Below are positions 27,707 through 30,774 of a stretch of DNA of 64,000 nt, piece by piece; the stretch's first letter is position 1, and every line of letters starts with the position of its first letter. Under the pieces are notes generated by a model. The model did no database searches, was not told the DNA's origin, and saw only the letters and a program-made list of their open reading frames with translations. Made by a program: the position numbers and the translations under genes. The DNA is taken from IMG/VR virus record IMGVR_UViG_3300037067_026422; one strand, given 5' to 3'. The DNA comes from a virus. Its lineage: Duplodnaviria > Caudoviricetes.

Positions 27707-28027
27707 ATGAAACTGTTGAAGTGTAAAAGAAATCTTATTATTATAGCAATGATGATAGTAGCTTCTTGTACTAACATGACAAAGCCTACAGATCCTTGTG
27801 CGCCCTTTAAATACATGGGTATTAAAGTTTCAGTACCTTACCCAACAGCTAATGATGGTCACCCCGTATACAATGTCCTGATAGACTCTTGTGAATATAT
27901 CTTTGTCTATTATTCAAATGCTTCATGGGGAGCCCATAAAGGTAACTGTAAATATTGCTCCGCCAGAAGACTTAAAGAAACTGATTCCATGTTGACTATA
28001 AAATTAGAAGGGCTAAGCACTGATTAA
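27707..28027 (+). CDS. Lipoprotein-like IDSCEY/HKGNCxxC protein, paralog of 9998..10324
   Basis: IVASC lipobox; IDSCEY...AHKGNCKYC. Confidence 0.7.
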   Translation: MKLLKCKRNLIIIAMMIVASCTNMTKPTDPCAPFKYMGIKVSVPYPTANDGHPVYNVLIDSCEYIFVYYSNASWGAHKGNCKYCSARRLKETDSMLTIKLEGLSTD

Positions 28028-28100
28028 GGGAAATGCTTATCAAAGAAATCCCTCATAGACCATCGGGATATCTGGCTTTATAGAAAGCAGGTAATGCTTC

Positions 28101-28832
28101 ATGAGACTCTCCCGACTTAAAAAGATTAAGGTATCCAAAAAGATCTGGGATACACTTCCGGCTTTAATAAAACGAGGTAAGGTTGAATGGCAGTCTGATA
28201 CTCCTACCCGATTTTTGTGCAGCCCCGGATGTCGTAATTGTTGCGGTGGAACATTCTATACCCTGAGTGAGTTCAAGACTCTTCCTATGACTATCAAAGC
28301 GAAGCTTGTCCGTAGTGATGAAGTCTCTACTGTATTTCATATCGAAAAGATAAATGGGAAATGTGCCTTCTATATTCCCAATGAGGATCATACTGGTCTT
28401 ACACATGGCTGTTCGATTCATGGGCATGAACCTATGCGCTGTCGGATATTCCCGTATCTACCCATCCTCAGCCAAGACAGAATATTCATTACCTCTGAAA
28501 CATTCTGTAACGTCTATGACCTCGTAGGGGTAGAGAAATACCCCCATGACATCTGTTTTGGGTTGGGGAACGGGAAAAGAGGTCTTAAGACTATAGTGAT
28601 CAAGATGTGTCGGGAGTACCTGATGTCTTTGTATCAGGAGTATCCGGACCTTCTTAAAGAGATAATGTTTGAGGAACCTGTTAAACTCCTCCATAGAAAG
28701 TATATTAATATGCAGATCAACCGGAAGTATAAAACATATGAAGATGCTATCCCAGCACTACAGCATGCGGATAGCTTGAAATTTGGACGTCAGGTGCTTA
28801 ATCGCCTGGCAAAAATGCTTCAAATACAATAA
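28101..28832 (+). CDS. YkgJ-family cysteine-cluster (CxxCxxCC) protein
   Basis: CSPGCRNCCG, KCAFY, CSIHGHEPMRCRIFPY. Confidence 0.8.
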   Translation: MRLSRLKKIKVSKKIWDTLPALIKRGKVEWQSDTPTRFLCSPGCRNCCGGTFYTLSEFKTLPMTIKAKLVRSDEVSTVFHIEKINGKCAFYIPNEDHTGLTHGCSIHGHEPMRCRIFPYLPILSQDRIFITSETFCNVYDLVGVEKYPHDICFGLGNGKRGLKTIVIKMCREYLMSLYQEYPDLLKEIMFEEPVKLLHRKYINMQINRKYKTYEDAIPALQHADSLKFGRQVLNRLAKMLQIQ

Positions 28833-29051
28833 GACTGATAATGGCAAAGAAAAACTCATCCTCTATAAGCATAGCGATAACTTTTATATTGGATGATATA
28901 TCCTGAAGATATCAGGACTACTATATAATAACTGGAAGTTGTAAAAGAAAGATATGGCACATGACCTGTATCATCAAACCCGGAAAAATAACCAGCTACC
29001 GTGGAAGCCATAAAAATATAAAAGACATTGCTTAAACTATAGTACAGTTCT

Positions 29052-29080
29052 TTGTAAAATCTCATTCCTATAATTATATT
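29052..29080 (+). promoter_or_regulatory. sigma70-like promoter TTGTAA-17-TATATT driving the CRISPR leader and array
   Basis: Exact 17-nt spacing; same class as the other promoters; predicted start near 29087. Confidence 0.72.
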
Positions 29081-29086
29081 ATCAGT

Positions 29087-29272
29087 ATTCACCGGCAGGT
29101 TTGTCGGGGAGAGCACGCTGAGGTGTCCCGTTAGGGAGCCTGTGATGCGTGAAATGTCTTGCGTGTGCTGGGAGCACTGATCATTGACAGTTTGGGGAGG
29201 TATCAATTTTTGGGTCATGATAATAACACATTACCTGGGGTAATTTTAAAAATTGCCCTACCAAATATTGGA
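29087..29272 (+). ncRNA. Structured CRISPR leader RNA containing an anti-repeat (29154-29177)
   Basis: GC-rich island with hairpins; GCGTGTGCTGGGAGCAC (29161-29177) matches 15/17 of the repeat's reverse complement. Confidence 0.6.
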
Positions 29273-29546
29273 GTGTTCCCTGCACACGCGGGGATGAACC
29301 GTTTACACATGAGATCCATACGACTAAGGTGCTGTGTTCCCTGCACACGCGGGGATGAACCGTATTATCCTGCGCATGTTCGCCCTCCATTCCGGTGTTC
29401 CCTGCACACGCGGGGATGAACCGATCTTACTTTAATCAAACAAAATAGGAGGATTGTGTTCCCTGCACACGCGGGGATGAACCGCCAACTTGAATCAGTT
29501 TTTATGTCTGTTCTTGGGTGTTCCCTGCACACGCGGGAATGAACTG
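29273..29546 (+). CRISPR. Type I-E-like mini CRISPR array, 5 repeats / 4 spacers, no cas genes in window
   Basis: Repeat GTGTTCCCTGCACACGCGGGGATGAACCG (29 nt) at 29273, 29334, 29395, 29456 and degenerate at 29518 (two substitutions); spacers 32, 32, 32, 33 nt. Confidence 0.97.
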
Positions 29547-29635
29547 AAATTTAAACGGAATTTCTGACCTGGCTTGACAGGTATGATTTCATACAGGATC
29601 GGCTTTTAAACTTAATACTCCTTCTAAAATTTTTA

Positions 29636-29664
29636 TTGTTTAACTGACTTTAAAAAAGTATATT
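29636..29664 (+). promoter_or_regulatory. sigma70-like promoter TTGTTT-17-TATATT
   Basis: Exact spacing, AAAAAAG tract. Confidence 0.75.
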
Positions 29665-29673
29665 GTTAAAGTC

Positions 29674-30057
29674 ATGAAAACACTACTCAACATAACATAT
29701 ACCGAAAGTGAGAGGAAACTCTTATACTCCTCTCTTGCCCCCGTAACGCAGCCCTGGCATCTGGCTACACTTAAAGAGGCGTGTGAACAACTTACTACAG
29801 GAGACAACTGTCCTGAACGAATCCTCATCTTCAGATCCCTGCCGGACTCAGTAGAAAAAGATCTTTTCAGTTATGAACCATATGGAGAAGCTAAAACCTT
29901 TGTAATATTTTTAAATAAGCAATATCTTGAATTTAACTTTTGGACCAGACACCTAAAAAATTTTCTGTTCCAGTCTAAACTATCAGAAATGCCTTTGTAT
30001 CTGAATATGTATTTTATGAATTATCTTGCAGCTTGGAGATTAAGAATAGCCAAGTAA
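29674..30057 (+). CDS. PLYIN/WRLxIGK family protein
   Basis: TYTESE; LSEMPLYLN...LAAWRLRIAK. Confidence 0.8.
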   Translation: MKTLLNITYTESERKLLYSSLAPVTQPWHLATLKEACEQLTTGDNCPERILIFRSLPDSVEKDLFSYEPYGEAKTFVIFLNKQYLEFNFWTRHLKNFLFQSKLSEMPLYLNMYFMNYLAAWRLRIAK

Positions 30058-30093
30058 TAAGTACCTGTATAAAGAAAGGGAGCACCCGTACGT

Positions 30094-30774
30094 ATGAAAG
30101 CAGCTCCAGTCAGTGAATCAATACCCGTCAAAACTTCATTTCTGTCACGAGCAGCTGTAGCAAGAAAAAGCTGGTACCTCGACAGGAAGAGTATTAGGCA
30201 ACCCTCACAGTATCACTGGACGCTAAAAGAACGTGCCATCCTATATGATTTAAGAGTTATACATAAGAAATCTATCCCTGAAATCCAGAGATATTTCCGA
30301 AAACTTAGTGGTACTCCTATTTATCTTGGTACGAACTACGATAATGATAAATATTCACGTACCCGACTTCATAATCAAATTCGCATCGTCCGTGGGACCA
30401 TGAATGGACTCTGTCATAAATGCCGTAAGAAGCTCTCAAAAGATGACCTCAAGCGTATCAACAGACGAGATAAAGAAGATCCCTCTATGGGGCTCTGCAG
30501 TGCTTGTGCTGAGGATGTTTCGGACTACAAGAGAACTGCCCGTAAAAAAGCCCTCAAGGAAGGCATCTGTCCTATCTGCTCCAAGAGGAAGATCCTGCCC
30601 GGATACACGACATGTATAAAGTGCCTGAGTGCTTCTCATCGTCAGAGATACATAGAGGGACTCTGTGGTAGATGCGGGGATAAACCTCTGGCAAAGAATA
30701 GCATTTCTTTATGCAGTGCTTGTCTCAAGGAGACACGGGAGTTAGCCAGAGAATATCGTAAAAAACAAAAGTAA
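30094..30774 (+). CDS. Basic HTH-like plus multiple zinc-ribbon protein
   Basis: WTLKERAIL...KSIPEIQ; CxxC pairs CHKC/CSAC, CPIC/CIKC, CGRC/CSAC. Confidence 0.7.
   Translation: MKAAPVSESIPVKTSFLSRAAVARKSWYLDRKSIRQPSQYHWTLKERAILYDLRVIHKKSIPEIQRYFRKLSGTPIYLGTNYDNDKYSRTRLHNQIRIVRGTMNGLCHKCRKKLSKDDLKRINRRDKEDPSMGLCSACAEDVSDYKRTARKKALKEGICPICSKRKILPGYTTCIKCLSASHRQRYIEGLCGRCGDKPLAKNSISLCSACLKETRELAREYRKKQK

Follow-up and report, generated by a model that had tools for sequence, protein, structure and literature searches.

The locus and its leader anti-repeat

We analysed a 64-kb stretch (hereafter the window) of a phage genome of ~239 kb (IMG/VR record IMGVR_UViG_3300037067_026422), in which a short type I-E CRISPR array is preceded by a leader that carries, on the same strand, a sequence complementary to the repeat, here called the anti-repeat. 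The window has a GC content of 39%, encodes phage structural and replication genes, with genes nearly all on the + strand, and holds no tRNA; the phage is present in a groundwater metagenome, probably its source, and in part also in a landfill metagenome of another study. The array sits within the intergenic region 28833–29673, together with the following features:

29052–29080, + strand: sigma-70-like promoter candidate TTGTAA-17-TATATT from a consensus scan, predicted start near 29087
29087–29180, + strand: GC-rich structured island, 94 nt, the 5' end of the predicted pre-crRNA (precursor of the CRISPR RNAs, crRNAs)
29088–29110, + strand: hairpin 1, in minimum free energy (MFE) and centroid folds
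29114–29151, + strand: hairpin 2 with a C/D-box-like kink-turn pattern, from folds, the motif being read from the sequence
29157–29178, + strand: anti-repeat, complementing repeat nt 1–21 and the last leader base
29165–29177, + strand: local palindrome GTGCT-GGG-AGCAC, an alternative 5-bp hairpin of −3.9 kcal/mol, read from the sequence
29181–29272, + strand: AT-rich proximal leader, 92 nt, 35% GC
29272–29293, + strand: predicted repeat 1 partner of the anti-repeat when only repeat 1 is transcribed (MFE helix)
29273–29546, + strand: type I-E mini-array, five 29-nt repeats and four spacers
29518–29538, + strand: predicted equilibrium partner in the full transcript, nt 1–21 of the degenerate repeat 5

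The repeats start at 29273, 29334, 29395, 29456 and 29518 (a period of 61–62 nt), the first spanning 29273–29301 and the last 29518–29546, and enclose spacers of 32, 32, 32 and 33 nt; in the fifth repeat, which is degenerate, two bases are changed (G21A, C27T). Type I-E crRNAs are cut by Cas6e at the repeat hairpin, after nt 21 of the repeat, and require no trans-activating crRNA (tracrRNA). The repeat found here has the marks of this type, namely a length of 29 nt, a 6–7-bp GC stem and a 4-nt loop (hairpin of −12.2 kcal/mol), and an identical 29-mer adjoins cse1-cse2-cas7-cas5-cas6e-cas2 (L022) and cas1-cas2 (L021) in bacterial metagenome contigs, while a one-base variant builds a 75-repeat array in a gammaproteobacterial metagenome-assembled genome (MAG). 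In both phage-bearing metagenomes more than 100 contigs map to this stretch; as most of them fit more than one place and the read depth is concentrated on the array, the data are consistent with other arrays of a closely similar repeat, e.g. a host's, being present in the same samples. The spacers had no target in the phage database, the window or the fetched loci.

No Cas9, Cas12, TnpB-like or other Cas protein was detected in the window: PADLOC gave no Cas hit among its 113 open reading frames (ORFs), Pfam returned nothing for ten of them, including unannotated proteins of 407 and 552 aa, and all tblastn matches to the Cas proteins of the relatives described below had E > 0.2. Thus, the original prediction of a cas-less array of type I-E holds, the first part for the 64-kb window and the second for a bona fide I-E repeat that stands beside I-E cas genes in bacterial contigs. 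A minus-strand ORF at 28856–29218 (P0002) has only itself as a homologue and no Pfam family, and so we treated it as spurious.

The core of the anti-repeat, 29161–29177, is identical at 15 of 17 positions to the reverse complement of repeat nt 1–17. This is the sole match to these nucleotides in the window outside the five repeats (minus strand, two mismatches), with 0.02 matches per window expected at three mismatches or fewer; the best matches in 626 other 400-nt windows of the phage, on both strands, had 5–9 mismatches, and the gapped local alignment score was 24, compared to a maximum of 20 in 500 shuffles. Once the anti-repeat was masked, alignment scoring found nothing else repeat-like in the leader. 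A candidate relic of an inverted array, a second GTGCTC exactly 61 nt upstream that ends at 29116, was rejected, its alignment score of 12 being that of the background. The core ends 95 nt before repeat 1 (29177 to 29273). As the match takes in the sequences complementary to the ACAC loop and to the 5' GTG, it is no by-product of the palindromy of the repeat; on the 15/17 match, the distance and the palindromy the earlier description proved accurate.

The similarity has a distinct profile, with 15/17 identities over nt 1–17, transitions only over nt 18–21 and 1/8 identities over nt 22–29, such that the minus strand retains repeat nt 1–17 only, its 3' stem half and handle being lost. A similarity that halts at the Cas6e cut site is unlike a uniformly decayed full repeat and, since Cas6e cuts after nt 21, the complementary part is exactly the 3' handle kept on the upstream product. 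The two differences from a perfect complement within the core, at 29169 and 29174, extend a 3-bp self-pairing into GTGCT-GGG-AGCAC; by a post hoc estimate, ~4 of 1224 possible double substitutions would build such a local hairpin.

We compared the window to 29 further array loci whose I-E repeats belong to this family, covering 17 IMG/VR viral loci, one MAG array, eight identical-repeat bacterial metagenome loci and four relatives (L029, L031, L032 and L034, three of the four being the same locus from different samples). Within 400–600 nt upstream, none of the 29 carried a same-strand anti-repeat, the best matches having 5–9 mismatches of 17, and the duplex energy of the 250-nt leader with the repeat reached z = −5.5 in the window versus −2.4 to +2.2 in 25 other arrays. 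Given this absence and the outlying z-score, the anti-repeat is real, yet private to this lineage, and is no by-product of I-E repeats or leaders.

Two of the IMG/VR viral arrays, L011 and L012, have a moderately strong leader:repeat duplex of their own (z −2.4 and −2.1), and L012 has a degenerate direct repeat copy 69 nt upstream. A Caldilineaceae MAG (L001:2319–2748) contains two two-repeat I-E-like mini-arrays in opposite orientation and 250 nt apart, a natural case of inverted repeat copies close together.

The structured island and its predicted pairing

The anti-repeat lies, as had been noted, inside a GC-rich island, with 59% GC compared to 31% and 35% in its flanks and with two predicted hairpins beside the anti-repeat. 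Folding of the island gave −34.8 kcal/mol for the + strand and −23.1 for the minus strand; its z-score alone, −1.4, is unremarkable, and in isolation it can self-close by pairing of 29088–29097 with 29167–29175. In the core of hairpin 1 (29092–29107), a stem of 6 bp, one of them G-U, carries a GGUU loop. Hairpin 2 has an internal loop with CUGA on its 5' strand opposite GUGAUG on its 3' strand, closed by CACGC/GCGUG, an arrangement that we take to fit the C/D-type kink-turn consensus; kink-turns are built of a C stem, a 3-nt bulge, tandem G-A pairs and a non-canonical stem. Rfam returned no match at E up to 1 within 28000–30500, and no terminator-like site was found in 28700–29800, hence none between the island and the array. 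A match to the proposed promoter lies at 29052–29080, with no other + strand candidate in the interval from the upstream gene to the array; promoter-like sites are, however, no more frequent in the region than in shuffled sequence (4 found, 3.3 expected).

In the proximal leader, an 11-bp AT-rich palindrome or hairpin lies at 29236–29260 (TGGGGTAATTT / AAATTGCCCTA), 13 nt 5' of repeat 1, which may bind a protein or form an RNA hairpin. We considered, and rejected, homology of the proximal leader with the leaders of same-repeat bacterial arrays, a similarity seen with MAFFT being unconfirmed by BLAST or a shuffle test.

In the MFE structure, 29157–29178 is joined to 29272–29293 by 21 pairs, including four G-U; the only mismatch is U-U, at 29169. 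The helix, laid out as 12 pairs, the mismatch and 8–9 pairs over 21–22 positions, replaces the 6-bp Cas6e hairpin, and its repeat strand is exactly the part of repeat 1 (nt 1–21) left on the leader fragment after Cas6e cleavage. Cofolding assigned −35.5 kcal/mol to the anti-repeat:repeat duplex, compared to −12.2 for the Cas6e hairpin, and the fold z-score was −4.3 for the leader with repeat 1 and −0.95 for the leader alone. By virtue of its G-U pairs, the helix is specific to the + strand RNA.

In transcripts made to end after each of the repeats (R1 to R5), 19–20 of the 21 anti-repeat bases were always predicted to pair with some repeat, and the repeat so paired lost its hairpin at every length folded. 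The partner shifted to the newest repeat as the transcript lengthened and settled on the degenerate repeat 5, which has the weakest hairpin and whose A21 gives a U-A pair in place of a G-U; forced pairing in the full transcript yielded −185.2 kcal/mol for R5 and −180.3 to −182.9 for R1–R4. Holding the anti-repeat single-stranded cost 22 kcal/mol, and a reversal of its sequence cost 12. In silico, then, the leader pairs with a repeat and abolishes the structure that the nuclease recognises, which is one of the marks of leader-repeat hairpins; these are equilibrium predictions, and co-transcriptional folding or fast, tight binding of Cas6e could alter the outcome.

The pairing set out in the original prediction, 29157–29177 with repeat nt 1–21 with one U-U mismatch and four G-U pairs, was thus recovered, and the cofolding of leader and array that it had proposed as a check predicts the anti-repeat to be paired at every length. 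Its view that the wobbles betray a conserved duplex stands only in part: the four G-U pairs do keep the pairing, yet the pattern by itself is weak (p of about 0.1) and the anti-repeat is not conserved in the loci compared. Its suggestion that AGCACGC (29112–29118) might sequester the anti-repeat was not borne out, since in the folds AGCACGC pairs with 29147–29151 instead.

Recurrence of the leader and relatives of the locus

The contig graph of the source run contains a 63-nt unitig (29111–29173) at ~3x the phage depth. On its left it branches to the window sequence and to a variant with two differences in 29090–29110, and on its right to the window sequence and to a 483-nt contig that diverges immediately 3' of 29173 and has at its end a repeat-spacer-repeat of this repeat family. 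A contig of the landfill run connects 29090 with an AT-rich upstream flank unlike that of the window. Judging by these graphs, a module of ~84 nt (29090–29173) seems to be present in two studies and in no fewer than two contexts. It comprises hairpin 1, the kink-turn-like hairpin and 13 bases from the start of the anti-repeat, and its position between varied flanks argues for a unit.

Searches of wider collections returned no DNA match to the leader, the array flanks or 8 kb downstream in the phage database; no exact copy of the repeat, kink-turn hairpin pattern, anti-repeat 18-mer, relatives of the flanking proteins or relative of the phage-type Cas5e in IMG/VR; and no 22-mer spanning the anti-repeat among the results of the JGI metagenome search.

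Relatives of the locus itself were found by way of its flanking genes. A 383-aa protein encoded 3.4 kb 3' of the array has many homologues on huge-phage-sized contigs, the closest (83% identity) in L029, where five genes 3' of the array are syntenic with the window (27–91% identity); in L031, a relative of the same type, a 317-aa gene 5' of the cas operon has 75% identity to a 320-aa gene of the window. Between these flanks the relatives carry cas3, cse1, cse2, cas6e, cas7 and cas5e and no cas1 or cas2, followed by a 51-nt leader and an I-E array (interference module at L029:1–6700 and L031:3691–10842, and also in L032–L036). The syntenic site of the window is occupied by two unrelated genes, one of 106 aa and one of 243 aa whose product has a CxxCxxCC domain, and by the island, the 92-nt AT-rich leader and the array, whose repeat is the bacterial one and differs from the repeats of the relatives at 4–5 positions, including a compensatory stem change. 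The simplest history that these sequences suggest is the loss of an I-E interference module carried by the phage, with the array re-fitted to the system of the host. The anti-repeat occurs only in this cas-less derivative, a single case, and not in the cas-bearing relatives.

Several further observations concern the relatives and the other genes of the window. The leader-proximal spacers differ among L031, L032, L034 and L036 (four comparable samples), implying ongoing spacer gain without a linked adaptation module. Just 3' of the array, the window encodes a 226-aa protein (30094–30774) with three CxxC-type repeats and a weak double zinc ribbon match, which shares 60% identity with the gene that takes this position in the cas-bearing relative. 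The PADLOC bulk scan of the 113 ORFs gave a strong SspH-like match (E 5e-58), a mad8-like match (3e-30) and a WGR-domain match; at 1826–2884 lies a 352-aa protein with a WGR domain and an ATP-dependent DNA ligase domain (Pfam).

Possible roles of the anti-repeat

The most likely function of the anti-repeat, to which we tentatively give a probability of about 0.4, is that of a leader-repeat helix acting in cis, by which each transcript loses one Cas6e hairpin; by analogy, it would be the type I, phage counterpart of the leader-repeat hairpins of types II-A and VI. This reading is favoured by the precision with which the complementarity covers nt 1–21, the strand-specific wobbles, the position in a structured, GC-rich region at the 5' end of the predicted transcript, the outlying statistics and the precedent of types VI-B2 and II-A. 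Also counted in its favour were a match far beyond chance, the predicted energetics, the better folding of the island on the + strand, the sharp boundaries of a 59% GC island within a 39% GC phage and the recurrence of ~29090–29173 with other flanks in two independent metagenomes.

Under the cis leader-repeat helix, transcription from ~29087 would first yield the 94-nt structured island, the last 21 nt of which complement repeat nt 1–21. Once a repeat is transcribed the predicted helix would form and displace the 6-bp hairpin of Cas6e, with repeat 1 as the partner during transcription and the degenerate terminal repeat 5 at equilibrium, and would so withdraw one Cas6e site per transcript. As the complementarity ends exactly at the Cas6e cut site, the product neutralised may be the leader with the 3' handle, which would bind Cas6e without yielding a guide. 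In a four-spacer array this would amount to one Cas6e-binding hairpin in five, a gain that should be largest for a mini-array, and the outcome would be an altered choice and efficiency of crRNA maturation when the phage borrows type I-E machinery from its host. The two off-complement bases build a competing local hairpin, which suggests a metastable rather than a maximal helix. Cutting of the 22-bp helix by RNase III is possible.

Leader-repeat hairpins that block the processing of one repeat have been demonstrated in type VI-B2 (PMC13187072) and, in Liao et al. 2022 as cited in PMC13187072 and PMC12080349, in type II-A. The resemblance lies in a leader RNA on the same transcript that complements the repeat, in a helix that replaces the structure required by the nuclease and in the masking of the portion that gives a non-guide product. 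They differ from the phage locus in that the latter involves a class 1, Cas6e-processed I-E repeat, a long-range (95 nt) rather than adjacent pairing and a cas-less, unconserved phage array, and in that the first I-E repeat serves the 5' handle of crRNA 1.

A number of points weigh against the cis leader-repeat helix. The anti-repeat is missing from the closest relatives (L029, L031–L036) and from all bacterial and viral I-E arrays examined, including those with the identical repeat, so that the conservation across related arrays that marks leader-repeat hairpins, and that the original prediction had proposed to look for, is not seen among the 29 loci; no homologous leader was found for covariation. 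The wobble pattern is weak by itself (the p of about 0.1 being our own estimate), and C-to-T drift is also to be expected in an AT-rich genome. The recurring module ends at 29173 and lacks the last four bases of the anti-repeat. Cleavage of repeat 1 creates the 5' handle of crRNA 1, and so masking it beforehand would cost spacer 1: the complementarity fits a non-guide leader fragment, yet the repeat masked is one whose cleavage is required. Pairing after cleavage, or with the already degenerate repeat 5, would avoid this problem. In addition, Cas6e binds its local hairpin fast and tightly, and these kinetics may defeat a long-range helix; equilibrium folding of a 500-nt RNA is a weak predictor; and the promoter, the co-transcription and the RNA itself are predicted. 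Of the cis switch melting the Cas6 hairpin that had been put forward initially, what stands is the pairing in silico at all lengths and the outlier position among I-E arrays, and what does not is conservation or covariation, co-transcription being inferred.

The strongest competitor, and a serious one, though less likely than the helix, is a functionless relic, that is, a partial inverted copy of the repeat (~17–21 nt) made by template switching or illegitimate recombination, perhaps as the present leader and host-matched array took the place of the ancestral phage cas operon with its short leader, the helix being passive. The locus is clearly rearranged compared to the cas operon and 51-nt leader of the relatives at the syntenic site, where the flanking genes show 75–91% identity; the anti-repeat is confined to one lineage, its three C-to-T changes fit AT drift, the helix has a central mismatch and no RNA sample was listed for this stretch. 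Against a relic, the similarity drops abruptly at nt 17–21, unlike that of a decayed full repeat, there is no second repeat-like remnant, and both core substitutions create the 5-bp local hairpin (~4/1224, the post hoc estimate given above); furthermore, a GC content of 59% has been kept by the island although the genome is AT-rich, further contexts of the module are seen in two samples, and the 0/29 count among other array loci indicates that relics of this kind are not a common background.

It is improbable, in our estimate, that the island has an independent function, be it as a structured RNA or as a DNA or protein-binding element (a 5' stabiliser, a Rho protector, a kink-turn protein platform or an operator-like palindrome, GTGCT-N3-AGCAC), and that its complementarity to the repeat was inherited or arose incidentally instead of being selected. 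Both deviations from a perfect complement do complete a local palindrome, the recurring 29090–29173 has hairpin 1 and the kink-turn-like hairpin without the whole anti-repeat, and self-closure of the island is possible; but its isolated fold (z −1.4) is unremarkable and without an Rfam family, a 15/17 match to the neighbouring repeat is too strong for an incidental one, and the G-U pairs speak against a palindrome that acts purely at the DNA level.

Nor do we think it probable, and slightly less so still, that the leader or a fragment of it released by Cas6e acts in trans as an antisense RNA anti-CRISPR, pairing with the repeats of the host pre-crRNA and lowering host immunity by blocking Cas6e or by creating RNase III sites. 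Bacterial I-E arrays with an identical repeat exist, ~100 other repeat-spacer contigs match the repeat in both phage-bearing metagenomes, and the predicted duplex with the canonical C9 repeat is equally stable (−35.4 kcal/mol). Phage RNAs that attack CRISPR are known, namely Racr (PMC10651486) and Cracr (bioRxiv 10.1101/2024.10.29.618823), and like them the phage element is cas-less and repeat-derived and would, in this role, be aimed at host CRISPR. These known RNA anti-CRISPRs, however, are not antisense: Racr and solitary repeat units (PMC10651486), as well as Cracr, are sense-strand mimics of the repeat with an intact Cas-binding hairpin or handle, and the spacers of Cracr are short (21–24 nt) and match cas promoters (bioRxiv 10.1101/2024.10.29.618823). 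The window element, unlike Racr, is antisense and, read on the minus strand, lacks the 3' stem half and handle, and its array has canonical spacers of 32–33 nt, for which no target was found, in place of the shortened pseudo-spacers, partly matching a cas or toxin promoter, that mark Cracr and crlRNA arrays. A single anti-repeat per transcript would moreover face some hundred host repeats, its own five repeats in cis would win, and no terminator ends a separate small RNA.

We regard as very improbable that a deleted cas gene left its 3' end behind as the island, or that the island is a micro-ORF (candidate MREMSCVCWEH, 29145–29180, with GGAG 7 nt upstream), so that the anti-repeat would lie in former or present coding sequence. 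There is an open frame at 29058–29180 with a 'VFTGRFV' similar to the C-terminal 'VFTHRFV' of the relatives' Cas5e, which is encoded by the last gene before their array, and the order of ORF end, 92 nt and array mimics the layout of bacterial loci. A Cas5e profile built from full-length family representatives, however, scored the island frame at −2.0 bits (E about 200), outside its top matches in the window, the best pairwise score of 35 lies below the 95% shuffle null of 38, Pfam found nothing at E up to 10, and 59% GC is too high for the relatives' 45% GC cas operon. On the profile, the shuffle range and Pfam, the island was rejected as a cas5e or cas2 remnant.

Scarcely credible, finally, is a tracrRNA- or scout-like RNA that hands I-E repeats to a Cas9, Cas12 or TnpB-like effector with maturation by RNase III, as the original prediction had offered in the alternative: like a type II/V tracrRNA anti-repeat, the element is a ~20-nt repeat complement with G-U pairs and a mismatch beside a structured 5' scaffold, and its helix of ~22 bp is a minimal RNase III substrate, but it lies in cis on the same transcript as the array instead of in a separate gene with its own 3' end (there being no terminator), no Cas or TnpB-like protein was found in the window by PADLOC, Pfam or tblastn, the relatives use a complete Cascade with Cas6e, and the repeat is a canonical I-E repeat of a Cas6e system that needs no tracrRNA.

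In the literature that we searched, anti-repeats are treated in connection with type II and type V tracrRNAs, and leader-repeat hairpins in connection with types II-A and VI; we found no account there of an anti-repeat on the same strand within a type I leader or that of a phage mini-array, nor of a leader-repeat helix in Cas6-processed class 1 systems or the cas-less arrays of huge phages. Cas-less mini-arrays of huge phages and mobile elements have been reviewed (PMC11656645), and the present one is like them in being a short, host-matching array without adjacent cas genes in a phage of >200 kb. It differs from them in its leader anti-repeat, which the sources searched do not mention for such arrays, and in that its relatives show descent from a phage-borne I-E interference module. 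A bolder proposal would be that antisense anti-repeat RNAs on a portable module of ~84 nt are CRISPR-directed regulators, either gating Cas6e in cis according to the Cas6e level of the host or masking host repeats in trans or exposing them to RNase III; this we consider a long shot.

Leader-repeat helices are known to tune the crRNA output of Cas9 and Cas13 systems. If functional, the phage anti-repeat would be a further variant of this already known regulatory principle, and would mean that type I systems, too, deal with the 'extra repeat' problem at the level of RNA, that a phage which discarded its own Cascade re-engineered the leader of its array on switching to host machinery, and that a simple, transplantable 21-nt handle exists for the control of Cas6e processing. 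Even if the anti-repeat is a relic, the locus would record an I-E interference module reduced to a host-matched orphan array.

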